A stretch of 64,000 nt of DNA from contig CAVVXH010000006.1 in NCBI GenBank assembly GCA_963752155.1, positions 217,809 to 281,808 of the forward strand, read 5' to 3'. Under the pieces are notes generated by a model that was not told the origin of the DNA, searched no databases, and saw nothing but the letters and a program-made list of their open reading frames with translations. The stretch is from an uncultured Parachlamydiaceae bacterium (GTDB taxonomy: Bacteria; Chlamydiota; Chlamydiia; Chlamydiales; Parachlamydiaceae). Position 1 is the stretch's first letter. Each line of letters begins with the position of its first letter. Positions 18,308-62,245 of this stretch are shown here, one piece after another. A program made the translations under genes and the position numbers.

Positions 18308-18314
18308 AAAAGGA

Positions 18315-25925: not shown

Positions 25926-26012
25926 GTATTTAACATCTAAAAAAAAGTATAATTATAAGCAGGGAAAAGAATACCGAGTATACAGCTTGACACGTTCTGT
26001 TGCTACTGTAGA

Positions 26013-26305: not shown

Positions 26306-26460
26306 TACGTCTACATAAAAAAAGCATATCCAGACAACACATCGTGGTTTCATCTACAAAAAAATCCAACCTCCACTTTATGAGAAGTCACAAAAAAAAT
26401 TTGAAGTTAATTACACGGAGGTGGCAAGCCCAAGCCATCCGCCCCCAAAAAACTATTTCG

Positions 26461-27477
26461 TTATTTCTTTGCCCATTCCTTCATGAGTTCTTGGTGATAT
26501 TTCTGCACTTTTTTTGTGTCATATTTTAAATTCCTAATAGAATGGCGCAATTCTTTTTCGTAAGATTCAATCTTCTTCTTGTCCTCCATCCCCCATCTCT
26601 TGATGCACAGGTGCGAAAATGGATTCAAAGTATACCGATTATTGATTAATAATCGCAATTGATCTGAAATATCACTCGCCCCATTAATGTAATCCGATGA
26701 CATCACTTTCTTAAAATGAGATGAAATCAACTCGTCATCATAACGAAATCCCCCACTCACAGCAGGATAACATATCCTATCAGCAAAAATATAGGCTTCT
26801 TTAGAAGAATCACTCAAATGAGAATTTTCAGAGATCTGAAGTAATATGCCAGCGTCCCCCTCTATCCATTTTGCAAAAATCGCATGAAGTTTTTTCAGAC
26901 TTTTTTTGCTTATTCCCAATTTCTCATAAAATGGGACCAGTTCTTCTACATAATCCACTTCTGTTCTTGACGAATCTGAAGCAAATAAACAAACAGAACA
27001 AGATCTCTTCCTAGTAAAATTTGAATAAATCCCATAATTTAAAGAAAGAAGTTGCCTTGCTCGAAGTTCATCACGATTATTTACTGAACCCTTCCAGTAT
27101 TTTGTAAATTCTTGTATAGAATTTAAATTAAGATCTGAATCCCCAGGAATACGTAAAAATTGAAAATCCTCTCGAATTTGAATAGCTAAAATTTCTTGAA
27201 GAGTCAATTTAATGACATCTTGATAAAATCTAAATTCATGATTAGCTCCGTGATAGCCAATATGTCCCCAATCCTCATTCTTGGCGATCGAGTCAAATAA
27301 GGGAATCATTGTCAATGGGACCTTAAAATGAATCAGTGAGGATTCGATCGAATCCCAAGATTCTCGTGCAATTAACATTTCTGTCGGCCCATAGTAATCA
27401 CTTGTAAGGGGTATCCCAGCAGAAATGGAAAATGTTAAGCATAATGATAATGATGAGGATAAAAAAAATCTTGTCAT
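26461..27477 (-). CDS. Hypothetical secreted protein
   Basis: Start moved to ATG 27477, giving the signal peptide MTRFFLSSSLSLCLTFSISAG. No family recognised. Confidence 0.55.
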   Translation of the reverse strand: MTRFFLSSSLSLCLTFSISAGIPLTSDYYGPTEMLIARESWDSIESSLIHFKVPLTMIPLFDSIAKNEDWGHIGYHGANHEFRFYQDVIKLTLQEILAIQIREDFQFLRIPGDSDLNLNSIQEFTKYWKGSVNNRDELRARQLLSLNYGIYSNFTRKRSCSVCLFASDSSRTEVDYVEELVPFYEKLGISKKSLKKLHAIFAKWIEGDAGILLQISENSHLSDSSKEAYIFADRICYPAVSGGFRYDDELISSHFKKVMSSDYINGASDISDQLRLLINNRYTLNPFSHLCIKRWGMEDKKKIESYEKELRHSIRNLKYDTKKVQKYHQELMKEWAKK

Positions 27478-27746
27478 GTTAAACCTCTTATATATCTTTT
27501 TAATTGTCAGTATGAGTGGCAATTCTCAGAATGTAATGATAGCATTAAATTAAGTCAAGATCATAAAATTATGTTTAAAATTTTATGAAGTAAAATTTTA
27601 TAAAATTATTTTGATAATGTTAAATATTAAATTGAAATGACACTTTCTGAAACATCCCCTATTGAAGGATGAGTTTTAAAAAAATTATTTTGATAAGGTT
27701 AAAAAAATAATTTAACTGATATTTTTGAAAAGACAGAAAAAAATGA

Positions 27747-32913: not shown

Positions 32914-34698
32914 ATGGAATCATTACAACCAGCAGGCATAACAAGTATCCATTTAGGACAAACATTTCCTCAAGGAATCAAAGTAGATCTTGACAAACTA
33001 CCTTATGATGTCTTCATGAACATTATAAATTCTCTAGACAACGAAGAGGGTGTCAGCAACACACTTTCAAATGAAGAGATCAAACAATTTACATTACAAT
33101 CAAATGAAAAAGGAAGCCATTACATTAAGGCTGCAGTAGAATTATTATCTAAAAATTTGACAGAGGATAAAGACCATGAGTTGAGAGATGATATCTCAAA
33201 TATCAGCACAAATAAAATTAAAGATTCAAAAAATATAAACGAAGTAAGATCATCAATTTTAGATGCAGAAGGTCAATTAATAAAATCTCTTTCAAAATTA
33301 AATGCTCAAGACTTAAATAAACTATTGAATTCCTGTTTAGAATCACATGGTGGAATTGAAACTTATAAAGATATAATTCCATTGATTAAAGAAGTCATCG
33401 ATCAAACATCCGAACTTTTTGATCCATTAAAATTTCAATCTAAAATGGAAAATGTGAAAAAAATAGAAAACTCTGAAGATAAAGTCAATTCTTTAGTTTC
33501 TATTCTACTACCTTACCTTCATAAAAACTTAAATAACTCACCTGAATTTCGGGAATTAATATCTTCAATAGATATGGGCACCCTAGTTAATTCAGAAGAG
33601 GCCTACAGTCTTGAGGCCAAAATGGGAATTGCTGCGTTTGATAAAATAAAAAGTGGCGAAGAAAAATATAATTATTTTATGAGTCTCTGGAACGGACCAG
33701 GTAAGAGTTTAGAACTAGTTCAGTTACTTCATAAAATACCTTCCCCAGAACGTATTGCACTTGAAGTGGCAAAATATGCTTTTAAAGAAGGTGATGACGA
33801 TAAAGCACTCGAAGCTATTAAATTAAGTCCAGTAGACGAAAGGGGTAAAGTCATAATTTCATTTTGCGAACAATTGCTTAATGAAAATAAATATGATAAA
33901 ATTGAAGAGTTTCTTGCATATCTACCTGCCCAACGATCCTTGCCGCATAGTTACGAAACGGCTCTCCAGGGAATACTCCTAAGTGTTACCGAAGAGTATA
34001 TTGATCTTGGCAAATACGATGAAGCTAAAAGGTTTGTAGAAATTATTCTTTCTATTAATCATGATCAAACCGATGATAACAGAAGAGTGAGTCGTGTACA
34101 GGTCTTTTTCAACATGGCCGCACGACTTCTTCTCGAAAATACCGCTATCCCAGAAGGAATGGAGATTCTAAAGTCGCTTTTAGAAACAGAAAAAGAAATC
34201 CATTCTTTTAAAGCAATTAGCGGAGTCCGATCTTGTGTGTCATTGTCGGTAAAGCTTGCTCAACGAGGTCAATATGATGATGCTCTTAAATGCGTTAATT
34301 TAATTACCGATATTCCTTCAGGAATTAGATCTGTGCAACCAGAATTAAAGACTTCCGCTCTTTATGATATCTTTAAGCTCCTTTTCGAAAGAGGCCTTAC
34401 AGAAAAAGCATTACAAGTTGCAGAATCTCTCGATGCAGGCTCTTATAAAGATAAGGCATATAAATTAATTTCTGAAAAATATGCTAATCGTGGCGATTAT
34501 CCATCGGCAGTAAAAAATGCCCAGATAATTCAAGATAAGACAATAGCAAGTGCAACTTATACTTATATCTGTAAAAAGATTTGTTCTAGAAATGACTTTG
34601 AATTTGCTAAAATTGTAGCAAATTCTATAGAAATTGATGAAGATAAAGAAAAAGTTTTAAACTTTATAAAAGAAATGGAATTTCCAAAAAAACGTTAA
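32914..34698 (+). CDS. Paralog 1 of a tandem three-gene family (594 aa; helical TPR-like C-terminal half)
   Basis: AAGGAG SD. Collinear similarity to 34983..36761 and 37134..38921 along the whole length. N-terminal LPYDVFMNIINSLD motif. Confidence 0.8.
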   Translation: MESLQPAGITSIHLGQTFPQGIKVDLDKLPYDVFMNIINSLDNEEGVSNTLSNEEIKQFTLQSNEKGSHYIKAAVELLSKNLTEDKDHELRDDISNISTNKIKDSKNINEVRSSILDAEGQLIKSLSKLNAQDLNKLLNSCLESHGGIETYKDIIPLIKEVIDQTSELFDPLKFQSKMENVKKIENSEDKVNSLVSILLPYLHKNLNNSPEFRELISSIDMGTLVNSEEAYSLEAKMGIAAFDKIKSGEEKYNYFMSLWNGPGKSLELVQLLHKIPSPERIALEVAKYAFKEGDDDKALEAIKLSPVDERGKVIISFCEQLLNENKYDKIEEFLAYLPAQRSLPHSYETALQGILLSVTEEYIDLGKYDEAKRFVEIILSINHDQTDDNRRVSRVQVFFNMAARLLLENTAIPEGMEILKSLLETEKEIHSFKAISGVRSCVSLSVKLAQRGQYDDALKCVNLITDIPSGIRSVQPELKTSALYDIFKLLFERGLTEKALQVAESLDAGSYKDKAYKLISEKYANRGDYPSAVKNAQIIQDKTIASATYTYICKKICSRNDFEFAKIVANSIEIDEDKEKVLNFIKEMEFPKKR

Positions 34699-34708
34699 TT
34701 GAGTTCTC

Positions 34709-34850
34709 GGGCAAGCAAGGACGGCAAGGACAACAGGCAAGGACGAAAAGGACAGAGGTAGTACCCTGTCATCCATGATCTATAGTGTCGTCCTTGCTGT
34801 CCTTGTCGTCCTTGTGCCGTCCTTGCCGTCCTTGCCTTCCTTTCAAAATA
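34709..34850. repeat. AAGGAC-type palindrome (family E) directly after paralog 1
   Basis: GGCAAGCAAGGACGGCAAGGACAACAGGCAAGGACGAAAAGGACAG ... GTCGTCCTTGCTGTCCTTGTCGTCCTTGTGCCGTCCTTGCCGTCCTTGCC. Confidence 0.85.
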
Positions 34851-34878
34851 AAAGTATCAACTAAAAAATAACTAAAGT

Positions 34879-34907
34879 TTGACATTATATTAGCCACTCT
34901 ATATAAT
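34879..34907 (+). promoter_or_regulatory. Sigma-70-like promoter of paralog 2
   Basis: TTGACA (34879-34884), 17-nt spacer, TATAAT (34902-34907). Confidence 0.55.
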
Positions 34908-34982
34908 TCTAGGCAAACTATTCTTAATATCATAAGAATGACATTAAAAACTTACAAATAATATTAAATAAGGAGTGAAATT

Positions 34983-36761
34983 ATGGAATCATTACAATCA
35001 GGCATAACAAGTATCAATTTAGGACAAACATTTCCTCAAGGAATGAAAGTAGATTTTGACAAACTTCCTTATGATGCCTTCATGAACATCGTGAATTCTC
35101 TAGATAACGAAGAGGGTGTCAGCAACACATTTTCAAATGAAGAGATTAAGCAATTTACATTGCAATCAAATGAAAAAGGAAGCCATTATATCAAAGCTGC
35201 AATAGAATTATTATGTAAAAATTTGACAGATGATAAGTATAGGTATGTTAAAGATGATATCTCATCATTTCGCACAGATGATATTAAAAAATCAAAAAAT
35301 ATAAGAGAAGTTAAATCATCAATTTTACTTAAAGAAACTCAATTAATAGATAGGCTATCTAGATTAGATACTCAGGATTTAAATAAACTATTGAATTCCT
35401 GCTTAGAATCATCTGAAGGAATTGAAACTTATAAAGATATAATACCATTTATTAAAGAAGTCATCAATCAAACATCCGAACTTTTTGATCCATTAAAATT
35501 TCGTTCGAAAATTGAAAATGCAAAAAAAATAGAGGACTCCGAAAATAAAGTGAACGCAGTAGTATCTATATTCTTGCCTTATGTTCAGAGAAATCTACAC
35601 CTTGCACCTTTTTTTCAAACATTAAAAGCTTCAGTGGACAATCTATTCAATTCAGAAAATGAAGCCCGTAGTTTCGAAACCAAGATGTCAATTGCTCGGT
35701 TTGCTCAAGAAGATGTAGAAGACAGGTATGATTATTTTGTGAGTATCTGGAACGGACCAGGTAAGAGCTTAGAATTTGTTCAGTTACTTCATAAAATACC
35801 TTCCTCAGAACCTATTGCACTTGAAGTGGCAAAATTTGCTTTTAAAGAAGGTGATGAAGGTAAGGCTCTTGAAGCTATTAAATTAAGTTCAGAAAACGAA
35901 AGAGGTAAAGTCATACTTTCATTTTGTGAACAATTACTTAAAGAAAAAAAATATGATAAAATTGAAGAGTTTCTTGCATATCTCCCTACCCAACGATCCT
36001 GGGATCATAGTTACGAAACGGCTCTTCAGGAACTACTTACAAAAGTTATCGATGAGTATATTGATCTTGGCAAATACGATGAAGCTAAAAAGTTGGTGGA
36101 AACTATTTTTTCTAGTGGTCGTGATCAAACCGATGATAGCAGAAAAGTGACTCAAATAAAGATCTTTATCAACATGGGCACACGACTCCTTCTCGAAAAT
36201 AACGCTATCACAGAAGGATTGGAGATTCTAAAGTCAATTTTAGAAACAGAAAAAGAAATCCATTCTTTTAAAGCAATGAGCGGAATCCGTTCTTGTGTGT
36301 CATTATCAAAGACGCTTGCTGAACGAGGTCAATATGATGATGCTTTAAAATGCGTTAATTTAATTGCTGATATTCCTTCAGGAATTAGATCATCAGTGCA
36401 ACCAGAATTGAAGACTTCCGCTCTTAATGATATCTTTATGCTCCTTCTCGCAAGAGGATTTACAGAAAAAGCATTACAAGTTGCAGAATCTCTCGATATA
36501 GGCTCTTCTAAAGATGAGGCATATAGAATAATTTCTTCTAGATATGCCATTCATGGCGATTATCCATCGGCAGTAAAAAATGCTCAGATAATTCAAGATA
36601 AGATGAAAGCAAGTGTAGCCTTTACTTATATCTGTAAAAAGATTTGTTTTAGAAATGACTTTGAACTTGCTAAAGTTGTAGCAAATTCTATAGAAATTGA
36701 TGAAGATAAAGAACAAGTTTTAAACTTTATAAAAGAAATGGAAATTCCAAAAAAACGCTAA
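34983..36761 (+). CDS. Paralog 2 of the tandem family (592 aa)
   Basis: AAGGAG SD. Highly similar to paralog 1 from MESLQ to the C-terminal IEIDEDKE.VLNFIKEME.PKKR. Confidence 0.8.
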   Translation: MESLQSGITSINLGQTFPQGMKVDFDKLPYDAFMNIVNSLDNEEGVSNTFSNEEIKQFTLQSNEKGSHYIKAAIELLCKNLTDDKYRYVKDDISSFRTDDIKKSKNIREVKSSILLKETQLIDRLSRLDTQDLNKLLNSCLESSEGIETYKDIIPFIKEVINQTSELFDPLKFRSKIENAKKIEDSENKVNAVVSIFLPYVQRNLHLAPFFQTLKASVDNLFNSENEARSFETKMSIARFAQEDVEDRYDYFVSIWNGPGKSLEFVQLLHKIPSSEPIALEVAKFAFKEGDEGKALEAIKLSSENERGKVILSFCEQLLKEKKYDKIEEFLAYLPTQRSWDHSYETALQELLTKVIDEYIDLGKYDEAKKLVETIFSSGRDQTDDSRKVTQIKIFINMGTRLLLENNAITEGLEILKSILETEKEIHSFKAMSGIRSCVSLSKTLAERGQYDDALKCVNLIADIPSGIRSSVQPELKTSALNDIFMLLLARGFTEKALQVAESLDIGSSKDEAYRIISSRYAIHGDYPSAVKNAQIIQDKMKASVAFTYICKKICFRNDFELAKVVANSIEIDEDKEQVLNFIKEMEIPKKR

Positions 36762-36772
36762 TTGAGTTTCTC

Positions 36773-36855
36773 GGGCAAGCAAGGACGAAAAGGACAGGGG
36801 TACCCTGTCATCCTAATGATCTATAGTGTCGTCCTTGCTGTCCTTGCCGTCCTTA
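36773..36855. repeat. AAGGAC-type palindrome (family E, short copy) directly after paralog 2
   Basis: GGGCAAGCAAGGACGAAAAGGACAGGGGTACCCTGTCATCC...GTCGTCCTTGCTGTCCTTGCCGTCCTT. Confidence 0.8.
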
Positions 36856-36907
36856 AATTCTTAAGAAAAATCCAAACACAAACAAAACAAAAGTGTCAAC
36901 TAAAAAT

Positions 36908-36936
36908 TTGACATTTTATTAAATAACATGTATAAC
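36908..36936 (+). promoter_or_regulatory. Sigma-70-like promoter of paralog 3
   Basis: TTGACA (36908-36913), 17-nt spacer, TATAAC (36931-36936). Confidence 0.45.
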
Positions 36937-37133
36937 TAAAAGTAAGTAAGTATAGGACTCATATCAGTTAGCATTTTATCTAAAAACAAGAGGTGCATCC
37001 ATGGAATCATTAATAGAAATGCAATTTACAACTAACATCTTTAAACAAAATTCTCATTTAATAACATCCACATATCAACTAAATAAAAGAAATTTAAATA
37101 TCTATTTGATTCCTGTTAAAACAGGAGGAAAAT

Positions 37134-38921
37134 ATGGAACCATTAGATCCAAATGGATTGAGGAGGAGTGATAATTATGAACAGACATTGCCTCAAGAAC
37201 TCGAGAAAATAGATCCTAGAGGACTACCATTTAATGTATTTATGCACATTATAGATTTTCTAAATAATCCAGATATAAATAATCACCAAATCACCAGCAA
37301 ATTATCTATTGATCAAATCGATGAGTTTATTAATAAATCAAGTGAAAGAGGAACTCATTACATCAAGATTGCAATCGAACTTCTATGTAAAAAACTTGAC
37401 GTTAGTGATTTAAAAGAAAACATTTCAAATATCAGTTTAGACCAAATTAAAGAATCAAAAAACATAAGAGAAGTCAGGTCATCTATTTTAAAAACTGAGG
37501 ATCAATTAGTAAATTCTCTATCTAAATTAAACAATGAGGATTTAAATAGCCTGCTAAATTCTTGTCTAGAATCGGATAGAGACATTGAAAATTATAAAGA
37601 TATAATACCTTTAATTAAAGAAGTTATCAGTCAAACATTCGAACTAAAGGATATTTTTGATCCATTAAAATTTCAATCTAAAATTGAAAACACAAAAAGA
37701 ATTAAAAATTCTGAAGACAAAATAAATACTTTAGTTTCTATTCTTTTACCCTATATCTATAAAAATTTAGATGATTCGCCTGAATTTCAGAAATTGTGGA
37801 CTTCAATAAATACAGCTACTCTTTTTAACTCAGAAAAAGAACTTCATAATTTTTACTCCAAGGTGTCAATTGCAAAATTTGATAAAATAAATGATGGAGA
37901 AAAAAAATATGAAGAATTTTCGAAGATGTGGAACGGGCCAAATAAAAGTTTAGAGATGGTTGAGTTACTTCATAAAATTCCTTCTCCAGAGCGTATGGCA
38001 CTCGAAGTCGCAAGATTTGCTTTTAAACAAGGCGATGAAAATAAAGCACTTGAAGCTATTCAATTAAGTCGAATTAGCGAAAGATCTGAAGAGATCCTTT
38101 CATTCTGCCAACAATTATATAATGAAGGGAATTTTGATAAAATTTTGAAATTTCTTTCTTATTTACCTTCTCACCGCCCATGGCATTTTAGCTATGAAAA
38201 ATCTCTTCAGGCACTCATCTGGAAAATTATCATTGAGTTCATTGATCTAGGTAAATTCGATGAAGCTGAAATGCTAACAAATCACATTCTTTACATTCAA
38301 AATGATGAAATCTCTGAGGACAGCAAAAATGCACGAATAGAGATGCTTTGGAAAATGTCGGAACGACTGCTTCTTGCAAACAACAGGATCCCCGAAGGGA
38401 TGACCATTTTAGAGTCGATTTCAGATACACAAAAAGGAATCGTTTATTGTGCAGAATTGGCAAAAAAGCTCGCCCAGCAAGGCAAATACGATGAAGCTTT
38501 AAAATGTGCAGGTCTTATTGCTGATGTCCATGTAGGAATTGGAGGACCTCGGCAGCCGAAAGAAAAGTCTGAAGCTTTTTTTAAAATCTTTAATGTTCTT
38601 TTTGAAAGAGGACTTATAGAAAAAGCATTGGAAGTTGCAGAATCTATTGATAAATCCCCTTATAAGGATGAAGCCTTTAAATTAATTTCTCAAAAATATG
38701 CTGATCGATGCAAATATGTAGAAGCAGTAAAAATTGCTCTCCTCATTGAAGATAAAAAAATTGGAAGCCAAGCCTTTGTATATATTTGTAGAAAGCTTTA
38801 TTGGAGAAATGAATTCGAATTTGCTAAAATCGTCGCAAATAGCATAGAAATCGATGAAGATAAAAAACAAACTTTAGAAGCTATAAAAACGGCAATGGAG
38901 CAACCAAAAAATCGCAAATAG
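37134..38921 (+). CDS. Paralog 3 of the tandem family (595 aa, more diverged)
   Basis: AGGAGG SD. Collinear with paralogs 1 and 2 (e.g. HYIK.A.ELLCK, DIIPLIKEV, LHKIPSPER.ALEVA.FAFK.GD, IVANSIEIDEDK). Confidence 0.8.
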   Translation: MEPLDPNGLRRSDNYEQTLPQELEKIDPRGLPFNVFMHIIDFLNNPDINNHQITSKLSIDQIDEFINKSSERGTHYIKIAIELLCKKLDVSDLKENISNISLDQIKESKNIREVRSSILKTEDQLVNSLSKLNNEDLNSLLNSCLESDRDIENYKDIIPLIKEVISQTFELKDIFDPLKFQSKIENTKRIKNSEDKINTLVSILLPYIYKNLDDSPEFQKLWTSINTATLFNSEKELHNFYSKVSIAKFDKINDGEKKYEEFSKMWNGPNKSLEMVELLHKIPSPERMALEVARFAFKQGDENKALEAIQLSRISERSEEILSFCQQLYNEGNFDKILKFLSYLPSHRPWHFSYEKSLQALIWKIIIEFIDLGKFDEAEMLTNHILYIQNDEISEDSKNARIEMLWKMSERLLLANNRIPEGMTILESISDTQKGIVYCAELAKKLAQQGKYDEALKCAGLIADVHVGIGGPRQPKEKSEAFFKIFNVLFERGLIEKALEVAESIDKSPYKDEAFKLISQKYADRCKYVEAVKIALLIEDKKIGSQAFVYICRKLYWRNEFEFAKIVANSIEIDEDKKQTLEAIKTAMEQPKNRK

Positions 38922-42617: not shown

Positions 42618-44001
42618 TCAGCTGTTCCATAAGCGTTTTAATGTTTCAAATTGAGCACGTGGGATTCTACGATCAGGAATAAAGGGGTAAGGGAAATCTG
42701 AGGGGCTTGCACGTTCCAATTCTACAGCGTTGATTCCAAAACCTGCTTCATCCCAGCACCCTCCAGGAAAATTGACATTAACCCCTGAGGAGGGTTGCTG
42801 GGCATTTTTACTTTGTTTTCCTCCACAACTTACTTTCCAATATTCATCTTGCCATTCAAACACAATGCCTCCAAAAACAAGAGGCGCGTGATCTAAAATA
42901 TCTTTCCAATGCCCTTCAATATAATCTGAAACATGTCTTGAATCTAAAATGGCCAAAGAACCTGTCGGACAAGTTTGAAGGAGGTTCTTATGATCTTGAA
43001 AACTGCAGGGAAGCATCCCTTGATCAATCATTTCTTGCCTTGTAGTAGAAGGAGCACCAATATTCTGTAATAATCAAGGGTTTATTCGTATATTTTTTAT
43101 ACTCAACAAATAAGTTTCCTTCTCCTTGACCAAAAATGATTAAATCCTGGTTGAACGCTTCCTCGATAGCAATTAATCCCCCAAATATCAATATTTGAAA
43201 CATCGACATTAAGTTGATTCACCCATCGAAGAGTTTCCATACCATCATCGATGAGTGCTACCATCGTGAGCTTATTTGGAGCAATCTCTTTTAACTGTCC
43301 AGCTAAAGTGTTCAGGTAATTCCAGTATTTTGGATTCGTGCGATTTTGCGCGAATTCAATTCATTGCCTAAAATCTACCGAAAAACAGCATCATGTTCTC
43401 CATATTTTCTTGCAATTTCAAGATAAGCTTCCGCGTCTGACATTCTGCGCTCTTCGGCTGTTTGAGATTTTAACCAGCTAAATCCAGGTTCTGATCGATC
43501 ATCCTCGACCCAGTATTTATCAGAAGCTTTCACAAACCAATCTCCATCGGGTTTTCCCTTTGCAACTTTATAGCGAAAAATGCTGTTGCTAATAGGATAA
43601 GAAACCCAAACATAAATTGGTTTTTTTCCTTTATTGTAAGCTAAATCAAAAAAATTCTTATGGTTACGAGGTTCAAGCTGACCCCTTCTAGGGTGCCAAA
43701 AGGAAACAGACATAAATGGAATCTATTTGACTCCCATCTCCCTCATTCTTTTCAAAATCTATCTTGTGTAACAGGATTGAAAAAATCGAAAAAAACGTCC
43801 CCAATTTTATCATCGTCATCAAGAGGCGCCGATCGGAATGGGAGAATAGTTCACACCCTGAACCGTAAAGGGGCGATCATTTACATGAAGACCTTGGTCT
43901 GTGATTTTGAAATCTGTTGTGGATTCGGCTTCCAGAGAACATAAAAAAAATCCTATACTTACTACAGCAATAAATGCCCTTAACTGATAAACTATCGACA
44001 T
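42618..44001 (-). pseudogene. Decayed clan GH-A (TIM-barrel) glycoside hydrolase gene
   Basis: Collinear fragments in different frames: signal peptide + VNDRPFTVQGVNYSP (43819..44001), 43375..43713, NPKYWNYLNTLAGQLKE... (43210-43370), PLIITEYWCS (43024..43209), and GGIVFEWQDEYW (42618..43031). Confidence 0.7.
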
Positions 44002-44151: not shown

Positions 44152-45371
44152 TTATAAATGCTTCAGCCTGAGGAAACAATTCTTTTGCTTCTTCATTGTT
44201 TTAAGCTCTCGATTAAATACTTCAGGAGAATCTAATTTTCCTGTAACTACCTGCCAGATTGTGATTGTGTCCCCTTCCCTTACGATAAAATCAATTTCGA
44301 CTGCACTTTCCAATTCCACAAATACATCATCATCAAATGCTTCGCGTAAGCCAAAGCACACCATAGGATTCTCAGACGGAAGACGTCCCTCATCAGTTGA
44401 ATGAGCAAGACTAACAACATTGCTGTAGTTCTCCTAGGTCCATGGCATGAATTTTTTGAGGATGGCGTCGTCGTATGGCTGCTTTTGAGGCTAAAAAAAG
44501 GGAGGGTTTCAATCAGAAGTCAAAAGATTCTCTCTTAAGATAACGACAGTAGCTTGTAGCAATTCGGTGGAAATTTGAAAATATTCGCAATCCTTTGAAA
44601 CGAGACAAGATTTCCTGTTTGCGTAAGTAAATGAACCGCTATATTGCGCAATAAAACTGGATCGCGGATATTATACCGTAAAACGATGTCCTTATATAAA
44701 ATATCATCAAAATACTGCTTCAAAAGATTTTGTTTATGCTCTATCGTCTTTGCAAGTGTTACCGCTGGAAACCCACCCCATTGTTGATAGTCATTAAGTG
44801 CTTGACGGATAACAGCTGAAGCTTTCACCGATAAACGATGCTTCGGAATTGGAATTTGATGGAATTCAAATATTCGGTAAAGTTTAGAGGTGATACTTCA
44901 AATGAAAGATGACGTCCTGTCAGTAATGTGGCGATCTCTCGAGACATCAACTTTGCAGAAGATCCAGTGATAAAAATTTTAATATTTTCAGTTTGACTTC
45001 TGGCGCGACCCAACGTTCCCATTCAGGGACATTCTGAATTTCATCCAGAAATAAATAAGTTTTTCCTGTGGAAAAACATGCTCTCGATAAATATCATAAA
45101 TTTCATCTAATCCTTCAAGGGTTAAGAATGGGATTAATTGCGGTTCTTCAAAATTAATATGCAAGCATCGCTTGTTGGGACACACCATCCTTTTCTAGTA
45201 GTCCATAATTTGATATAACATAGTGCTTTTACCTGAACGACGAGGTCCTACTAAAACAATCATTTCTGAGGTATTTATATAGGGCAGAATTTTTCTCGTC
45301 ATTTGTCGAAAAATTCCACTATTAAGTAAATTGGAGCCCCAACGATTCCACATAAAAAGAGTATTTATCAT
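44152..45371 (-). pseudogene. Decayed AAA_14/DUF4143 ATPase gene (paralog type of 8935..10260)
   Basis: Hand translation from ATG 45371 gives MINTLFMW...LVGPRRSGKST, then stops and frameshifts. The remaining fragments (44988..45188, 44825..45022, 44535..44828, 44152..44364) are collinear with the family. Confidence 0.75.
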
Positions 45372-45457
45372 GAAAATTTAACCACTATAACAGTTGAATA
45401 TGACCTATATATAACCGTTATAACCGATGAATGCAAGCATATAGTGGCAGGCCTTAG

Positions 45458-45754
45458 ATCTGGCGCTATTTCAAGTTGACTTGGTAAAATTTTTTTGGAG
45501 TGCGTGTGGCTCTGCCACCGCAGAACGCAGCCTCTATACGAGTCATGCCGGTAGACGTTGCCTCCACTAACTCATACTCATACTATCGTTGTTACAATTT
45601 GAATTCTCCTTTGTTGTAGCGGTTAGAAAACTTGCTTGAGTTCTATCGAGGCTACGTCTACCGGCATGACTCGTATAGAGGCTGCGTTCTGCGGTGGCAG
45701 AGCCACACGCACTCCAAAAAATTTTTATCGAGTCAACTTGAAATAGCGCCAGAT
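45458..45754 (+). repeat. Family B long-arm palindromic element, copy B1
   Basis: ~107-nt arms, ~95% complementary by eye (ATCTGGCGCTATTTCAAGTTGAC...GCCGGTAGACGTTGCCTC / GAGGCTACGTCTACCGGC...GTCAACTTGAAATAGCGCCAGAT), around an ~83-nt core. Confidence 0.9.
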
Positions 45755-45874
45755 TTCGCTAGATTCCAAAAAATTGTTCTGATTTCATATGCCCTGGCAG
45801 GCCACGCCAAATCATTTGACAAAATTTTTGAAGTAAAGGATAAGAAAACTTGGTCATTTTAATGGAAGCTTGCT

Positions 45875-46666
45875 TTGGAAAACCCCCTACATCTTGCAGT
45901 CCTCAATGAAGATTTTGAAACCCTTCAACAACTTTCTAAAAACTCTAAACTAAGGGGATGTAAAAACTCATTGGGTTTTACAGCTTTAGAACTTGCTAGG
46001 TTCTTAGGAAAAGATCAATGTATTGAAATTTTATCCCCTAATACTAACAAAGAAATCCTTGTTATTAAGCCAGGAGAACATAAAATCACAAAATTTACGC
46101 CCGAGCTCTTTACTACCCATTTTAATATTAAGTATCGCAGCCACTTAAATTTTCGCGATTATGATTTTCTAAAACAAATGATTAAAAACTGTCCCTGGAC
46201 ATTACATACAAGCTTTTTAGGAGAAGAAAATCGTGCACAAGCCATTACATTCCGAAAAGAATTATCTACCGGACATATTGCCCCTACGACCATCCAATGG
46301 ATCGACAATGAACTGGGTTATGGATTATTTGCACGTACAAATCTAGCTCCAGGAACATTTGTAGGAGAATTCACAGGGGTCGTCCGCCGCTTATATAGAC
46401 TCAGCCCAGATCAAAATGAATACTGCTTCCATTATCCAACGCGCTTTTGGTCTTGGAATTACACGATCATTGATGCTATTGCCGAAGGCAATGAAACACG
46501 GTTTATCAATCATAGCGATACTCCCAACCTTAAACCTATATGCCTTTGTGAAAGAAGGCTTTTACATACGGTCTTTATGACCAATTCATTTGTGAAGGCT
46601 GGAACACAACTTACTTATAACTATGGCAAAGACTTTTGGAAGCATAGAACAAAAAATGAATCATAA
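45875..46666 (+). CDS. Ankyrin-repeat + SET-domain protein (putative protein lysine methyltransferase effector)
   Basis: ANK-like PLHLAVLNEDFETLQQL...GFTALELARFLGKDQCIEIL. SET motifs GYGLFA, RFINHSDTPN and QLTYNYG. The listed start is a TTG. Confidence 0.75.
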   Translation: MENPLHLAVLNEDFETLQQLSKNSKLRGCKNSLGFTALELARFLGKDQCIEILSPNTNKEILVIKPGEHKITKFTPELFTTHFNIKYRSHLNFRDYDFLKQMIKNCPWTLHTSFLGEENRAQAITFRKELSTGHIAPTTIQWIDNELGYGLFARTNLAPGTFVGEFTGVVRRLYRLSPDQNEYCFHYPTRFWSWNYTIIDAIAEGNETRFINHSDTPNLKPICLCERRLLHTVFMTNSFVKAGTQLTYNYGKDFWKHRTKNES

Positions 46667-46679
46667 GTCGGGAATTGCC

Positions 46680-46755
46680 AGCAATTGTGGATAAAAGTGA
46701 TTTCCTCGAAGGAAAATCACTCATCCACAATTGCTAGGGAATTGCTGCTGTTTTA
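46680..46755 (+). terminator. Hairpin plus T-rich tail after the SET gene
   Basis: AGCAATTGTGGATAAAAGTGATTTCC-TCGA-AGGAAAATCACTCATCCACAATTGCT, followed by TGCTGTTTTATTATTT. Confidence 0.5.
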
Positions 46756-46829
46756 TTATTTAACTTGACTACATTATCGAAATAATATACTCTTCAAAAA
46801 ACAACCTAACAATACTAAAGGTTATAATT

Positions 46830-48758
46830 ATGTTTAATACTTCTACTTGGATGAGTTGCGCTAAATGGCTCGACAAAAAAACATTTGGTGAAAATAAAAT
46901 ATTTCTTAAGGAAAGAAAAAATGGAGAATTAACTACTTGTCATCGTGGGCACTTTTGGTCATTTCTTTCTTATATGATTGGTAGAAAAGAAAACTATGAT
47001 TTATGGCAATTATTTGGTTTAACAAAAACCGATTCCTACCACTTCAACTTTCGTTTAGTAGCAAGAACTTTTTTTCGTTGTTCGGATGCAAGCGTTATCA
47101 AAATCGCATTAGAAATTTTGAATTTAAATCAAAAGAAAGATGTCCGTCAAAAATTCCAAAGTGTTTTCATAGAATTTAATAAGGCCAACATTGATCTAAA
47201 TAAATTCAAGCGCAGTTACGAGTATTTTATACCGACAAATATTAGAAATGAAGCACAAGATACAGAGTTAAAACATAGTTTTTACACATTCATTAATCAA
47301 TGGATACGTCTTCACCAGGGTTTTAATCAAAAAAATTTATCTGAACCTCTAGATACACTCATCGATTTTCTTGAAGCAATTTATCCGATTGGAAGTGAAG
47401 AAGATCCACATTCTTATGACAAGAATAAGATCTTAATAGCTACGGAAATTCTGGACACACTCAAATATATGGGAAATGACATAAATTTAAAAAACTTATC
47501 CACAAATATCATTTTATTAAAAGAAGACAAACTTTGGTCAGGACAGGAAATAATCTCGTGCATTAAAAAAATGCACACCAATTACTCGAACAATATTTTT
47601 CATCAAAGCATCCTTCAAGAAAATTTCATTATTTTTTGTGATTCTGATACATTAGATGAAAAAATTCAGTTTATACGAGATTGTCCCCTATTTTCAACCC
47701 CTTTTATCAAAGATGTTCTACTCAATTTAAGAGTAAATAATATTAAACTGGGAAATAAAGTTCATGTACTTCCAAACAAAAATTTTAATGATAATGTATT
47801 TTTTTTGGATAAAAGTCCAATAATAAGTCTTATTAATGAATATATGGAATCTTCAACCCTTTGGGAAAAGTTTACTCTTTTTAACAACCTTTGTCAACTT
47901 CAAGTTAAAATTGACTATTCATTGCTAGAACCTTTCTTCCTATTTTTCAAAACTTATAACTTCACTTCAAAAATGCATTTACAACTTATTCAAATGGGCT
48001 GCTTGCTCGCACTTCGCAAATGTAAAAAGCCCAGCTCCATCATTTATTTATTGGAAAATTTGGAAAAAATCATTGTTTATGCTGAAAAATTCGATGCTCG
48101 CGCTCTTTCTGCACCAATGAACTCAGTTTTTGAATTCGAAATAAATGAAAAAGGGCATGTGTATTCAAATTTATTAACCTGTTATGTTAATGATCAATTT
48201 ACCAAACCGAACTCATTTAATTATATTTCAGGAATTGCCACAACTCTTGAGTCCTCACCTAGCGGAACAGATGTAATTAAATCCTTGCTAAGTTCTCATT
48301 TCTTCGAAGACTACTATATAAAAGCTTTTACAAGCTATGTTCAAGAGAATCACCTTAAAAAAGAGGCAAAATATGCCGTTGGAAGACCACTGCTTGATCA
48401 TCACATTGAACAAAAATTTAAAAAAGCCCAGCAAGAATGTAAACTTATAAGACGGTTAGCTAAAATTCCTGCGACATGGCAAGGATTAATCTCACCGTTA
48501 ATTAACAGAATTTCAACTATCCATGACTTTTCCACTACATTTAAATCATTAGTAAAAGCAGGAGCTTTAGTATTTAGAGAGGCAATGGATTTCGAAGAAG
48601 CTACTCTAAATGATAAGATTAAAACTCTTTTTTTGACATTACATCATGCAGCTGTTTTGCAACCAAGAGGTATCACCTCAACACTTAGTAATGATATCGT
48701 TATAAAAATCTTATCAAATTTTATTATGCTTCGTTATAAAGATTCGCTGCAGCCATAG
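46830..48758 (+). CDS. Hypothetical protein (642 aa)
   Basis: Long ORF with AAAGG upstream. No motif recognised. Confidence 0.6.
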   Translation: MFNTSTWMSCAKWLDKKTFGENKIFLKERKNGELTTCHRGHFWSFLSYMIGRKENYDLWQLFGLTKTDSYHFNFRLVARTFFRCSDASVIKIALEILNLNQKKDVRQKFQSVFIEFNKANIDLNKFKRSYEYFIPTNIRNEAQDTELKHSFYTFINQWIRLHQGFNQKNLSEPLDTLIDFLEAIYPIGSEEDPHSYDKNKILIATEILDTLKYMGNDINLKNLSTNIILLKEDKLWSGQEIISCIKKMHTNYSNNIFHQSILQENFIIFCDSDTLDEKIQFIRDCPLFSTPFIKDVLLNLRVNNIKLGNKVHVLPNKNFNDNVFFLDKSPIISLINEYMESSTLWEKFTLFNNLCQLQVKIDYSLLEPFFLFFKTYNFTSKMHLQLIQMGCLLALRKCKKPSSIIYLLENLEKIIVYAEKFDARALSAPMNSVFEFEINEKGHVYSNLLTCYVNDQFTKPNSFNYISGIATTLESSPSGTDVIKSLLSSHFFEDYYIKAFTSYVQENHLKKEAKYAVGRPLLDHHIEQKFKKAQQECKLIRRLAKIPATWQGLISPLINRISTIHDFSTTFKSLVKAGALVFREAMDFEEATLNDKIKTLFLTLHHAAVLQPRGITSTLSNDIVIKILSNFIMLRYKDSLQP

Positions 48759-48791
48759 ACTGTAGGTCTTTTCACATGAAATCAGAACAAG

Positions 48792-49058
48792 TTTCAAGTT
48801 GACTTGGTAAAAATTTTTTGGAGTGCGCGTGGCTTTGCCACCGCAGAACGCAGCCTCTATACGAGTCATGCTGGTAGACGTTGCCTCCATTAACTCATAC
48901 TATCGTTGTTACAATTTGAATTCTCCTTTGTTGTAGCGGTTTAGAAAACTTGCTTGAGTTCTATCAAGGCTACGTCTGCCGGCATGACTCGTATAGAGGC
49001 TGCGTTCTGCGGTGGCAAAGCCACGCGCACTCCAAAAAATTTTTATCGGGTCAACTTT
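48792..49058 (+). repeat. Family B long-arm palindromic element, copy B2 (same orientation as B1)
   Basis: Near-identical to B1, including the core TAACTCATACTATCGTTGTTACAATTTGAATTCTCCTTTGTTGTAGCGGTT. Ends 3 nt from the nrdA stop codon. Confidence 0.9.
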
Positions 49059-49061
49059 CAA

Positions 49062-51419
49062 CTACCCACTACAACTTAAACAACCGGGTTCAAGAGAACA
49101 CACCCCAGAACTACTGCTGCTACTACTGCCATTGAGTCCTACACTCTCTACATTTTTCTTTAATGTAAACTTGATGGCCTCAGCTGCAGCCTTAGTTCTC
49201 AAATAATACATTCCTGTCTTCAACCCTAGCTTCCACGCATAAAACAACATCGATGTCAATTTCGAATAAGAAGGATTCTCAATAAACAGATTCAAAGATT
49301 GCGTCTGACAAACATACGGCCCACGTCCCTCAGGACCAGCCATATCAATTAATACTTTTTGCTTAAGTTCCCAAACAGTTCTATAGAGCAATTTAATATC
49401 TTCCGGTATCCCCTCAATCCCTTGAACAGAACCATTAGAGGCAAAAAGTTCATTCTTAACCCTTTCGTCCCACAATCCTAGGTCAACAAGATCACGCATG
49501 AGATCTTTATTAGCAACGATAAACTCCCCAGATAAAACCCGCCGAGTGTAAAGATTTTGAGTATACGGCTCAAAACATTCATTGTTTCCAAGAATTTGCG
49601 AGGTCGATGCCGTTGGCATCAAAGCAACCAATAAAGAATTGCGCACTCCAAATTTAGCAACAATCTCTTTCAATTTCTTCCAATCCCATCGTGGACCTGG
49701 TGTAACATTCCACATATCATACTGAAAGATTCCTTTTGATACGGGAGAACCTGGATATGTTTCATAAGGACCAAATTCCTGAGCAAGTTCACACGAAGCT
49801 GTCATCGCCCCGTAATAAATAGTTTCAGCTATTTCTCGATTTAATGCTCGAGCTTCATCTGAATCAAAAGGCATCCTTAATCGAATGAACGCATCCGCTA
49901 ACCCTTGAACACCTATGCCAATGGGGCGGTGCCGAGAATTAGAAAGCTTAGCAGCTTCAACTGGATAACTATTCCCATCAATCACTCGATTTAAATTCTT
50001 TGTGATCACTTTAGTGACTTCAAAAAGCCGTTGATGATCAAATTTCCCATCGAGAATAAATCGCGGCAAAGCAATTGAAGCCAGGTTGCAAACAGCTATT
50101 TCATCCGGTGAAGTGTACTCGACAATCTCAGCACATAAATTGCTTGATTTGATCGTTCCTAAATTTTGTTGATTTGATTTACCGTTACAAGCATCCTTAA
50201 ACAAGATATAGGGGGTTCCCGTTTCAATTTGGGACTCTAAAATCTTAAACCACAGATGCTGGGCTTTTACCACCTGCTTAGCTTTTCCTTCACTTTCATA
50301 ACGCCTGTACAGATCGACAAATTCTTGCCCCCAGCAATCATCAAGACCCGGAGCTTCATTAGGACAAAACAGAGACCACTCTCCATTTTCTTCTACGCGT
50401 TGCATAAAGAGATCCGGCACCCACAGAGCCGTAAAGAGATCGCGCGCGCGCACCTCTTCTTTTCCTGTGTTTTTTCTTAAATCAAGAAATGCGTAAATAT
50501 CAGCATGCCATGGCTCCAAGTAGACTGCAAAAGATCCTTTTCGTTTTCCTCCCCCTTGATCGATGTAACGTGCTGCATCATTAAACACGCGAAGCATAGG
50601 AATAATTCCATTAGAAGTTCCTCCTGTACCTCGAATATAAGAACCGGTTGCACGCACATTGTGAATGCTTAAGCCAATACCACCGGCAGATTGAGAGATT
50701 TTAGCACAGGCCTTAAGGGTATCAAAAATTCCATCGATACTGTCTTCTTTCATTTGCAATAAAAAGCAGGACGACATCTGCGGATTTGGCATTCCTGCAT
50801 TGAAAAGCGTGGGGGTGGCGTGAGTAAACCACCGTTCGCTCATTAAATGATATGTTTCAAGGGCGGATTGAATGTCCTTTTTATGAATCGCTAAAGCCAC
50901 CCTCATTAACATGTGCTGAGGGCGTTCTACGACACGACCATTCATCCTTAATAAATAAGAACGCTCCAGGGTTTTAAAGCCAAAATAATCGTATCCAAAA
51001 TCACGATCATAGATGATTGAAGCATCCAGAATTTCTGCATGCTCTTGAGAAAGATCATAAAGCTCTTCCGATATTAAGCCCGATTTCTTTTGAGTTTTAC
51101 TATCGACGTAGTGATAAAGCCCTTTCATCGTTTCAGAAAACGATTTGAGTGTATTTTTTTGTAAATTGGAAATGGCTATACGTGCAGCCAATATCGCATA
51201 ATCAGGATGACGCGTTGTCATTGTAGCTGCGACTTCAGCGGCTAAATTATCGAGTTCACTCGTTGTCACCCCATCATACAAGCCTTCAATCACCTTAAAA
51301 GCCACTAATGACGCATCAATATGATCACGATCGAGGCCATAAGAAAGTTTTTGTATTCTGGCGGTAATTTTATCAAATTTGACAGACTCACGCCTACCAT
51401 TTCGTTTTATGACATCCAT
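49062..51419 (-). CDS. nrdA: Ribonucleoside-diphosphate reductase, alpha subunit (class Ia)
   Basis: N-terminal ATP cone [16 protein letters not shown]. Catalytic SNLCAEI and [12 protein letters not shown]-terminal redox tail CLSCSG after a poly-Ser linker. Confidence 0.93.
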
Positions 51420-55531: not shown

Positions 55532-56101
55532 ATGGAAAGCATTCCCTACTCTCAAATTGAAAAAGGGACTTTTCTTATTTCGACACCGGATATCGAGATA
55601 GGGATATTTTTTCGTTGCGTTATATTGATCTGTGAGCATAATCCAAACGGCTCGTTTGGCCTCATACTCAATAAACTCCTCCATTTGGATCTACCACCTG
55701 AAATTGTCAATTTGAATACTTTAATCAATCCACATGTTTCCATTCATGCCGGAGGCCCAATCCAAACCAATCAAATGATGCTGCTTCACAATAGTGGAGA
55801 GATCTCTTCCCAGACGCTAAATATTTGTGAAGGCCTATATTTAGGTGGTGATCTTCCCTTTTTACAAGAATCCTTAATGGATAAAAATGGCCCTCAACTA
55901 CTCTTATGCTTTGGTTATACAGGATGGGGTCCGGGACAATTAGAACGGGAATTTCTGGATGGTAATTGGTTTGTTTGTCCCGGTAGTGCAAAACATGTTT
56001 TTAATACCCCTGCAGACAAGCTATGGCCTACTCTATTGCGTGAAATGGGTGGGCATTATGCTTCTTTGTCAATGATTCCCGAAGATTTATCGCTAAATTA
56101 G
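55532..56101 (+). CDS. yqgE: YqgE/AlgH family protein (UPF0301)
   Basis: [22 protein letters not shown]...GGP...[11 protein letters not shown] pattern. Confidence 0.85.
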
Positions 56102-56198
56102 GAAGTGGCATAAGTACTTAGGGATCATTTGGTTAGTAGGTAGGAGACTGTACAAATGATAAAAAAGTGGCAGTCAAGTTATTATTGCACAGTCCCTT

Positions 56199-56440
56199 AC
56201 CCCCAAGATTTACGCAACTGAAAAAAGCGTCGTTTTCAATTAATAACAAGATACTAAATTCTGAGAGGTAACGTTTAGCCTTGGTTCCAGACCTGACATT
56301 CTGACATTTGCCCTCCTGGGAGGTTACGTTATCATTGTAGGCAAATGTCAGAATATCAGGTCAGGCACCAATGGCAAGGTGCTTTAAAAATCTGTTATTT
56401 CCCGATAGGGGGCGCCGCAGGCAACTGTCTCGCTTTGCAG
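56199..56440 (-). repeat. Family A element, half copy A3 (inverted orientation), preceded by a family C fragment at 56169-56198
   Basis: Reverse complement of the left half of A1, from ACCCCCAAGATTTACGCAACTG to GGCGCCGCAGGCAACTGTCTCGC. Confidence 0.85.
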
Positions 56441-58478: not shown

Positions 58479-59519
58479 ATGAAAAAAATCGGCATTTTGT
58501 TGGTCAATCTGGGAACTCCCGCATCGCCACATCCTAAAGACGTCCGTCACTATCTCAATGAATTTTTAATGGACGGCCGCGTCATTGATAAACCCTGGCT
58601 TACCCGTTTTTTTTTAGTGCGAGGGCTCATCGTTCCCTTCCGTTATAAGAGCTCTGCAAAAGCCTATCAACAAATTTGGACGAAAGAAGGGTCTCCCCTC
58701 CTTGTCCACGGAGAAAATCTACGCAGGGACTTACAACAAGAACTCGGTGAAGACTTCATTGTAGAGATTGGGATGTGCTATCAAAATCCCTCCCTCAAAA
58801 AGGCCCTAGACACCTTACTCAAAAAAGAAGTTTCCCGTCTTTTAGTGCTCCCTCTCTATCCTCATTACGCTTCCGCCACTACAGGCTCAGTCCACCAGAA
58901 AGTTATGGGAATTTTATCCAAACAACAACTTATTCCTGAAGTCACCTTTGTAGATCACTTTTTCGATCACCCTGGCCTGATTAATGCTTTTTGTGAAGTG
59001 GCGAAAAAGCATTCTCTTTCAACATTCGATCACTTTCTATTTAGCTTCCATGGTCTGCCTGAACGTCAGCTCACAAAAGTAGATTGCCATGGCCGTTGCC
59101 TAGCCTCAAACACCTGCTGCAAAACGGTTACTCAATATAATCGATCCTGTTATTCAGCTCAATGTCATGCTACAGCGACAGCTATTGTCAAAGCCTTAGA
59201 AATCCCCCAAAAAAGCTACTCAATTTCCTTCCAATCTCGTTTAGGTAAAGAACCTTGGCTATCGCCCTATACCTCAAAAACAATTACAACTCTTGCCAAA
59301 GAGAAAAAAAACAAAATTTTAGTTTTTTGCCCTTCTTTCGTCTGCGATTGCTTAGAAACTCTCTATGAAATTGGAATTGAATACTCTCATGAATTTAAGG
59401 CCGCGGGTGGAGAAAACCTTACTCTCGTCGAAGGGCTCAACAACCATCCTAGCTGGATTCAAGGGATAAAAAACATCATTTTAGATCGCCTTCCACATCA
59501 ATATCAACAATACAAATGA
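58479..59519 (+). CDS. hemH: Ferrochelatase
   Basis: GILLVNLGTP...YLNEFL.D..VI, LPLYPHYA, and FSFHGLP motifs. Confidence 0.9.
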   Translation: MKKIGILLVNLGTPASPHPKDVRHYLNEFLMDGRVIDKPWLTRFFLVRGLIVPFRYKSSAKAYQQIWTKEGSPLLVHGENLRRDLQQELGEDFIVEIGMCYQNPSLKKALDTLLKKEVSRLLVLPLYPHYASATTGSVHQKVMGILSKQQLIPEVTFVDHFFDHPGLINAFCEVAKKHSLSTFDHFLFSFHGLPERQLTKVDCHGRCLASNTCCKTVTQYNRSCYSAQCHATATAIVKALEIPQKSYSISFQSRLGKEPWLSPYTSKTITTLAKEKKNKILVFCPSFVCDCLETLYEIGIEYSHEFKAAGGENLTLVEGLNNHPSWIQGIKNIILDRLPHQYQQYK

Positions 59520-61692: not shown

Positions 61693-61841
61693 TTAAATCC
61701 CTATTAATATAATATTATTTATTAATCGCAAACAATCAAACTATAGTATATCATAAAATAAAATTTCAGACAAGAGCAAAATCAGTACCAATCCCTAGAC
61801 TTTTTAATTGCCATTTGATAGTGGTAAATGCTACATTTAAT

Positions 61842-62245
61842 GTATAGGAAAAATTAAACGCAAAGCGAGACAGTTGCCTGCTGCGCCCCCTATTGGGAAA
61901 TAACAAATTTTTAAAGCGCCTTGCCATTGGTGCCTGACCTGATATTCTGACATTTGCCTAAAATGTAACGTAACCTCCCAGGAGGGCAAATGTCAGAATG
62001 TCAGGTCTGGAACCAAGGCCAGAACGTTACCTCTCAGAATTAAGTATCTTGTTATTAATTGAAAACGACGCTTTTGCTTCTTTCAGTTGCGTAAAACTTG
62101 GGGGTAACGTTCCAGCCTTGGTTCCAGACCTGACATTCTGACATTTGCCCTTTAGGAAGCAATGTTATCGCATCGGCAAATGTCAGAATGTCAGGTCAGG
62201 CACCAATGGCAAGGCGCGAACTTGTTATTTAGGAGGCACAAAGAA
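61842..62245 (+). repeat. Family A element, copy A4 (same orientation as A1; right terminal repeat replaced by a family H fragment)
   Basis: Collinear with A1 from GTATAGGAAAAATTAAACGC to GGCGCGAACTTGTTATTTAGGAGGC. Confidence 0.9.

Follow-up and report, generated by a model that had tools for sequence, protein, structure and literature searches.

Two diverged direct copies of a non-coding foldback repeat bracket an ankyrin-SET gene at a gene-order breakpoint in an uncultured Parachlamydiaceae genome

Several families of short palindromic repeats are known from the intergenic DNA of bacteria. ERIC/IRU elements, Yersinia YPAL, and the Rickettsia palindromic elements are ~100 to 170 bp long and occur in tens to hundreds of copies; they are nearly wholly self-complementary, lie between genes beside stop codons, are characteristic of certain host-associated bacteria, and can affect mRNA processing. 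Here, we describe a foldback repeat, B, two copies of which (B1 and B2) lie in a 64-kb stretch of an uncultured Parachlamydiaceae genome (hereafter, the window; all coordinates for B are in window numbering). Like the elements above, B is nearly wholly self-complementary and intergenic and lies by a stop codon; however, it measures ~270 to 335 bp, has an asymmetric loop of 80 nt, and is not known to have sequence in common with them. MITEs, short for miniature inverted-repeat transposable elements, are defined as being <500 bp long and intergenic and as forming a very stable hairpin (PMC10969869). B resembles bacterial MITEs, among them the Correia elements of Neisseria and QMITE1 and QMITE2 of Coxiella (PMC10969869), in being <500 bp, non-coding, and intergenic, in having inverted ends and a very stable stem-loop in the transcript, and in the coexistence of full copies with decayed or truncated ones; one B copy also has a possible 9-bp target duplication. 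In integron mobilization units, TIME-COMPs (PMC13367494), and IS26-type translocatable units, two direct repeat copies bracket accessory genes, as the B pair does. Unlike those MITE composites and IS26 units, the B-bounded unit has no target duplication or matching transposase, occurs once, and has copies that differ by 5%. Our favored reading, to which we give a probability of about one-half, is that B is a lineage-specific, MITE-like, non-coding foldback repeat, that its two old direct copies bracket genes at a point where gene order shared with relatives breaks off, and that the locus is prone to recombination; B itself may once have been mobile.

The two copies and their folds are as follows.

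45458-45754, + strand: B1, full foldback repeat, with its left arm at 45458-45564, its loop at 45565-45647, and its right arm at 45648-45754
48790-49063, + strand: B2, second foldback copy, with its left arm at 48790-48886, its loop at 48887-48966, and its right arm at 48967-49063
B1 RNA fold, + strand: -229 kcal/mol (z = -25 versus shuffled sequence)
B2 RNA fold, + strand: -190.6 kcal/mol (z = -23.5 versus shuffled sequence)
B1 DNA fold, + strand: -139 kcal/mol (z = -24.5 versus shuffled sequence)

An earlier note on this DNA had described two long-arm palindromes in the same orientation, each with ~107-nt arms around an ~83-nt core. The palindromes and their orientation were confirmed by a repeat finder, by folding, and by word counts (an arm 22-mer occurred 4 times and a loop 32-mer twice in the window, versus 0 in shuffles for either). 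The lengths given in the note apply to B1 (arms of 107 nt each, 96% complementary; 83-nt spacer), but B2 has arms of 97 nt each, 92% complementary, around an 80-nt spacer. The note was right that such arms would form very stable structures, both copies folding far more stably than shuffled sequence (z of about -23.5 to -25), and wrong in placing the end of the cassette 3 nt from the stop codon of nrdA, since the B2 palindrome touches the nrdA TAG (49062-49064). B1 and B2 are in direct orientation, are ~95% identical overall (95 to 96% between same-side arms), and have a start-to-start spacing of 3317 to 3323 nt. Their similarity spans 48792-49057 on the B2 side, and the B2 palindrome itself reaches 49063. 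The copies differ by 10 substitutions plus indels and share an identical loop segment of 49 nt. B is 274 to 297 bp long (~335 bp including the extension described below), and its GC content is 46% (50% in the arms) versus 37% for the window and 33% for the cassette interior. The idea that the loop is better conserved than the arms was dropped (1 substitution in 77 nt versus 9 in 187; P = 0.29). An assembly artefact is unlikely, given the substitutions and indels between the copies and the separate mismatches of each arm, and it is further disfavored by an independent Logan assembly (contig L001) that matches 45700-48821 exactly. The ends of L001 were considered as signs of additional B copies, an idea that was abandoned: the Logan contig that bears nrdB (L092) breaks inside nrdA, so Logan contig ends are unreliable as repeat signs.

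B has the small size, lack of coding capacity, and terminal inverted repeats of a MITE. Its longest open reading frame (ORF) is 76 aa; neither the short ORFs in all frames nor the joined peptides of all arm reading frames, run as one query, had a homologue among 5.8 billion proteins. Rfam 15 gave no gathering-score match in the window, the only hit to the B1 region being a 17-bit chance match (E = 4.4). Exact 22-mer and 21-mer arm patterns, together with a degenerate 24-mer that covers the variant found on contig L087 (see below), were absent from GTDB representative genomes, JGI metagenomes, and IMG/VR, and a sensitive blastn search of B against PLSDB plasmids returned no match. These results suggest that B is restricted to the Parachlamydiaceae lineage of this genome. 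Within the 64 kb, sensitive blastn and nhmmer detected no further B copy, and a relationship of B to the family-A palindromes (see below) or to other window sequence was dropped after blastn and nhmmer. The REP/BIME system, which comprises 20- to 40-nt imperfect palindromes with a GTAG or CGTC tag, high copy number, and a RAYT gene (PMC3733652), was rejected as an identity for B: B is ten times larger, no GTAG or CGTC tag lies beside the 8-bp local hairpin of its arms, and the window showed no Y1 transposase.

The arms extend further than first described, solely on the sides that face the two genes between the copies.

45755-45794, + strand: B1 right-arm extension, gene-facing (remainder of a 29-nt segment, a 19-nt stretch, and CCC at 45792-45794, up to the right 9-mer listed below)
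48773-48791, + strand: B2 left-arm extension, gene-facing (CACATGAAATCAGAACAAG, an inverted match to 45773-45791)

This further inverted match between 45773-45791 and 48773-48791 covers 19 nt (17/19 matching; 22 nt at 91% by the repeat finder). In the arm alignment, the 29-nt segment beside the B1 right arm (45744-45772) has no counterpart at the B2 left arm. The outward-facing ends of both copies are truncated, being shorter than the inner ends. An alignment of all four arms also bears on the history of the pair. Left and right arms differ by CTTGG versus CTCGA and at two sites near the loop, and these differences are common to B1 and B2, indicating that the arms diverged before the copies split and that the whole arm-loop-arm unit was duplicated. 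In addition, two copy-specific substitutions are present in both arms of their own copy (GCGTGTGGCTCTGCC in B1, GCGCGTGGCTTTGCC in B2). With ~4 to 5 differences per arm, we estimate that ~0.1 such matched pairs would be expected by chance, which suggests that the arms of one copy evolve together. Since the two sites are 7 nt apart, one short conversion tract could explain both.

The following genes lie between and beside the copies.

45875-46666, + strand: ankyrin-SET gene, 263 aa (Pfam SET, 2e-16), encoding a putative eukaryotic-type protein-lysine methyltransferase
46830-48758, + strand: 642-aa gene of unknown function, product mostly helical, 31% GC, very small lineage-specific family
49062-51419, - strand: nrdA, first gene of a block of shared gene order that runs from nrdA through a 189-aa ORF ending at 56101
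44152-45371, - strand: decayed AAA_14/DUF4143 ATPase gene in at least four ORF pieces, its start 86 nt from B1

Right of B2, nrdA and nrdB lie on the - strand and are followed by mlaE and three more genes. The exact NrdA protein of the window is not on record; its closest relatives come from two Parachlamydiaceae metagenome-assembled genomes (L008, 88% amino acid identity; L007, 84%), both of which have nrdA-nrdB-mlaE and the three more genes in common with the window. Directly past the nrdA stop codon, L007 and L008 carry different genes, with no SET gene, no 642-aa gene, and no B. The gene order common to these relatives stops exactly at the nrdA stop codon, the start of B2. The opposite boundary of this block in the window is a family-A palindrome (56197-56438), which sits after the 189-aa ORF (55532-56101), exactly where L007 and L008 cease to match the window in gene order. 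A simple insertion between conserved neighbors was considered and rejected, since the genes found downstream of nrdA in L007 to L010 are not present elsewhere in the window. Left of B1, the decayed ATPase gene retains an AAA_14 match (7.9e-12) in a 65-aa piece, a weak DUF4143 match, and a Walker A motif (GPRRSGKST) in a 58-aa piece; left of it, more short ORFs on the same strand, to which no name was assigned, occupy 42618-44001. An intact AAA_14/DUF4143 paralogue (8935-10260, - strand) was too distant to serve as a template for rebuilding the pseudogene. Besides this paralogue and the decayed copy beside B1, the window holds one more gene of AAA_14 type, an ATPase_2/AAA_14 gene without a DUF4143 match (18901-20313, + strand).

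Exactly two ORFs of at least 60 aa lie wholly between B1 and B2. B1 lies 120 nt upstream of the SET gene, while the 642-aa gene and nrdA converge on B2. A predicted outward promoter (TTGAAA-16-TAGATT) at 45738-45765 may drive SET. The SET protein carries ankyrin repeats at its N terminus (Pfam Ank_2, 1.3e-3; designed ankyrin proteins, 2e-12 over residues 3 to 56), and its SET domain can be aligned with those of EHMT1, SETD2, and Legionella LegAS4. It had 127 matches at 36 to 70% identity, those with a named source coming from Parachlamydiaceae, Parachlamydia, or other Chlamydiae. Chlamydia NUE, a secreted bacterial SET methyltransferase, is comparable to this protein. Legionella RomA/LegAS4 (PMC10653858; PDB 5czy) likewise combines SET with ankyrin repeats. 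Compared with RomA/LegAS4 and NUE, the protein encoded here is small, has its ankyrin repeats at the N terminus, and belongs to a Parachlamydiaceae-wide orthologue group. The 642-aa protein had no Pfam match. Among 1.8 billion representative proteins, its sole full-length homologue was P0122 (35% identity), and two further proteins matched just its N-terminal ~90 aa; an AlphaFold model built from a 4-sequence alignment was unusable (pLDDT 37).

Five SET loci of relatives were fetched (L002, L004, L005, L006, and L091), none of which has B or the 642-aa gene. The gene next to SET varies among them: L002 and L091, the two closest orthologues, have efp immediately downstream, L004 and L005 have uvrA there, and hemH is adjacent in L006. 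In L006 (8902-10819), the SET orthologue directly follows and overlaps hemH, the ferrochelatase gene. The hemH gene of the window (58479-59519) lies 12 kb away from SET, on its right, and the ORF that comes after it (309 aa) is unrelated; this ORF was tested as a second SET gene and rejected. The arrangement in L006 may be a vestige of an earlier linkage between hemH and SET. In L004 and L005, a different ATPase gene (AAA-ATPase_like/PDDEXK_9) lies two genes upstream of the SET orthologue. P0001 and P0121 each occurred solely on a single assembly contig and on the Logan contig that matches it (L001). Taken with the flanks, these loci bear on several claims of the earlier note. Its description of the region as a plasticity zone agrees with the different gene order past nrdA in L007 and L008 and with the gene decay to the left; the comparison it had proposed, of synteny downstream of nrdA, found both relatives without SET, the 642-aa gene, and B. 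The ORF scan likewise agrees that the copies flank exactly the ankyrin-SET gene and the 642-aa gene. Of the two decayed genes that the note placed at the left border, decay was evident for the ATPase, while what lies further left is a set of unnamed short ORFs. The note had suggested that the cassette might be a repeat-bounded insertion, which is not supported: the unit lacks a flanking target duplication (its outer flanks have no common word longer than 5 nt), the outer ends are truncated, and SET is widespread without B. It had also reasoned that relatives carrying both genes without flanking B copies would argue against a cassette. This applies in part: the SET loci do lack B, but they lack the 642-aa gene as well. 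As for a recombination-prone module, direct repeats of ~270 nt that are 95% identical would be a plausible substrate for homologous recombination.

B-like sequence also occurs beside the homologue of the 642-aa protein. P0122 is encoded on contig L087, which derives from the same sequencing run (ERR11630394); the protein is present only in the Logan assembly, not in that of NCBI/ENA. Two ORFs of 786 aa and 1383 aa, neither with a Pfam domain, come after P0122 there, making a three-gene block. L087 112-163 matched the arm model (nhmmer E = 1.1e-5; 84% identity over 50 nt), and the contig ends form a 38-nt inverted repeat at 79% identity (score of 24 versus 9.3 ± 1.4 in shuffles). Across 1.47 Mb of fetched loci, the 12-mer TTTTTGGAGTGC had no occurrence outside B and the two L087 ends. 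Thus, as judged from these matches, the B family is not confined to the SET/642-aa locus. Tetranucleotide composition was tried as a means of placing L087 in the same genome and was uninformative, all Parachlamydiaceae loci correlating at 0.93 to 0.98.

One B copy is flanked by a direct repeat.

45445-45453, no strand: left 9-mer TGGCAGGCC, resembling a target-site duplication around B1 plus its extension
45795-45803, no strand: right 9-mer TGGCAGGCC, second half of the direct repeat

TGGCAGGCC occurs just twice in the window, at 45445 and 45795.

A number of observations weigh against the view that B is a MITE-like repeat whose copies arose by insertion. The 9-mer is weak evidence of insertion, since the chance of any 9-mer being common to both B1 flanks is ~0.01 before allowing for the three flank pairs examined, and the B2 flanks have no direct repeat, their longest common word being a 6-mer whose offsets are unrelated. 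The two outermost ends of B1 lack symmetry and do not match each other. The arms, at 97 to 107 nt (~145 nt with the extension, hence a range of 97 to 145 nt), make up ~70% of the element, whereas typical MITE arms are 4 to 30 bp (PMC10969869), and B is GC-rich relative to its background and above the genome in GC, whereas MITEs are usually AT-rich. Copies are few (two full copies and the two diverged fragments on L087), no transposase domain was found by Pfam in 44 scanned window ORFs, and the window has yielded no parent insertion sequence. Finally, independent insertion would not predict arm extensions on the gene-facing sides only, nor the bracketing on L087, where inverted, diverged B-arm-like fragments (1-375 and 8878-8957) enclose the P0122 block with their outer ends facing the genes.

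We nevertheless favor the MITE-like foldback reading, in which B would be one of several long-palindrome families that fill the intergenic space of this genome. B1 and B2 would be fairly old duplicates (~5% diverged) of the whole arm-loop-arm unit, and we infer that arm complementarity has been kept mainly by short-tract copying from arm to arm or by repair within the hairpin, with a possible contribution from selection on a folded transcript. The pair would not act as a cargo-carrying transposon, and its effect is likely to be passive: with 270-nt direct repeats and inverted arm pairs, the 3.3-kb segment could be a hotspot of homologous recombination and could undergo deletion, circular excision, re-integration, or inversion. 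The window contains ~10 intergenic long palindromes from several unrelated families, and bracketing by two of them is therefore less special than it seems. Relatives carry unrelated long palindromes of their own, L008 downstream of nrdA and L002 downstream of the SET orthologue; long palindromes between genes are thus a general feature of the clade. The genomes of environmental chlamydiae are large and plastic and encode many host-mimicking proteins, and the reshuffling of the genes for such proteins is poorly documented. If foldback repeats like B mark or cause breakpoints around such genes (here, one for a RomA/NUE-type SET methyltransferase and a lineage-specific gene of unknown function), they would offer a concrete mechanism testable by PCR. 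On present evidence, B is a well-formed but ordinary palindromic intergenic repeat family, relevant chiefly to specialists in the evolution of chlamydial genomes and to those who assemble genomes, as short-read contigs break at B.

The gene-facing extensions fit an origin by circle integration, as in IS26-type and MITE composites. In this alternative, homologous recombination with a resident B beside nrdA brought in a circle made up of one B with extensions on both sides, the SET gene, and the 642-aa gene, a reversible event of the Campbell kind or like that of an IS26-type translocatable unit. We regard it as a tentative explanation that is probably not the correct one. It agrees with the direct orientation of the copies and with the precise stop of shared gene order at B2, it predicts the exact asymmetry observed (extensions only at 45755-45791 and 48773-48791, none outside), and it is consistent with the L087 block, where the sole full-length 642-aa homologue is likewise bracketed by inverted B-like arms with gene-facing outer ends. 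SET would have been relocated, since efp and not nrdA lies downstream of it in the two closest relatives; however, the neighborhood of SET differs in every relative, so that relocation needs no special mechanism. Furthermore, TGGCAGGCC flanks B1 plus its extension rather than the expected ends of a resident B, the 5% difference between B1 and B2 makes any such event old with no sign of present activity, and no circle, empty site, or second cargo context was found (P0001 and P0121 being single-locus). It appears very improbable that the unit is a true composite transposon with a MITE at each end (of the integron mobilization unit or TIME-COMP type), in which a transposase encoded elsewhere moves B1, cargo, and B2 together. 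Two copies of one short inverted-repeat element do flank non-housekeeping cargo, and MITE-bounded precedents are known (PMC13367494, PMC10969869), but a target duplication with intact outer termini is lacking: the unit has none around it (longest common flank word of 5 nt) and both of its outer termini are truncated. Moreover, neither the unit nor the cargo gene pair was found in another genomic context, no transposase was seen in the window, and B had no match in GTDB representatives, JGI metagenomes, IMG/VR, or PLSDB.

A different kind of explanation holds that B serves mainly as a functional structure in RNA or DNA, with the + strand hairpin co-transcribed with both genes as an RNase III site, an mRNA stabilizer, or a two-way terminator and with selection keeping the palindrome. 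Both copies fold 11 to 12 kcal/mol better on the + than on the - strand, and 5 of 6 independent transition mismatches in the stem are G.U on the + strand (one is A.C), a bias that is not significant (one-sided P of ~0.11). Compensated changes in the arms are in line with such selection, but arm-to-arm conversion explains them without it. The positions of B2, between converging genes, and of B1, 120 nt upstream of SET, would suit a regulatory structure, as would a GC-rich local hairpin in each arm (GCG(Y)GUGGC-UYU-GCCACCGC), which the L087 variant retains at the same place with a different stem (GCUGUGC-UCUG-GCACAGC); however, the stability of this hairpin is near that of shuffled sequence (z of -1 to -2), with one co-varying pair only. 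No U-tract follows either hairpin, so that neither is a classic terminator, no Rfam family matched, and the nrdA and SET genes of relatives lack a homologous element. We therefore consider a primarily functional role unlikely. A more far-reaching proposal, which we regard as a long shot, is that B-type arms are the boundaries of a new gene-shuffling system of environmental chlamydiae without its own transposase, in which effector-like, fast-evolving blocks (of the 642-aa family, here together with ankyrin-SET) would lie between inverted foldback arms, the outer ends of which point toward the genes, and would be moved, inverted, or duplicated by recombination between arms. Such a system would explain the gene-facing extensions and the second bracketed block on L087, and it would explain why 50-nt arm fragments (79 to 84% identical) are much more conserved than the proteins they flank (35%).

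Other palindromes occur in the window and in its relatives. Family A has four intergenic copies (5148-5567, 18300-18829, 56197-56438, and 61838-62238) in both orientations and up to 99% identical; it is larger than B and has nested arms and a repeated core, GGCAAATGTCAGAATATCAGGTC. A 70-nt palindrome at 21834-21903 (CCCGTGGTTGAACGATCGAAAGTGACCCAATATTA plus its complement, in perfect spacing) has a ~75% identical relative downstream of nrdA in L008 (8468-8535), indicating a short family that, unlike B, is common to different species. The L002 palindrome (1170-1511) lies ~120 nt downstream of the closest SET orthologue (70% identity) and has 72-nt arms that are 86% complementary; its sequence is unrelated to that of B, and a CTATC-rich tandem repeat lies within it. 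At 25997-26167 and 26231-26313, inverted arrays of the 9-nt tandem repeat AACGATAAR lie ~100 nt apart and form a palindrome of microsatellite units, with 80-nt arms, between a Sel1-repeat gene and the ORF at 26461-27522.

Repeats are also found within genes of the window. In NrdA, a run of seven serines precedes the conserved CxxC tail at the C terminus (49080-49110) and is absent from the L007 and L008 orthologues. The Sel1-repeat gene (22930-25794, - strand) encodes a 954-aa Sel1/TPR repeat protein (Pfam Sel1, 3e-100) and contains 213-nt tandem DNA repeats that are 85 to 91% identical, which suggests a recent expansion of repeats within the gene. At 32914-38921 (+ strand), three tandem paralogues of ~594 aa, the first of which has no Pfam domain, are spaced 2.06 to 2.18 kb apart with DNA identities of 65 to 91%, depending on segment and pair; they look like a locally amplified, lineage-specific family.

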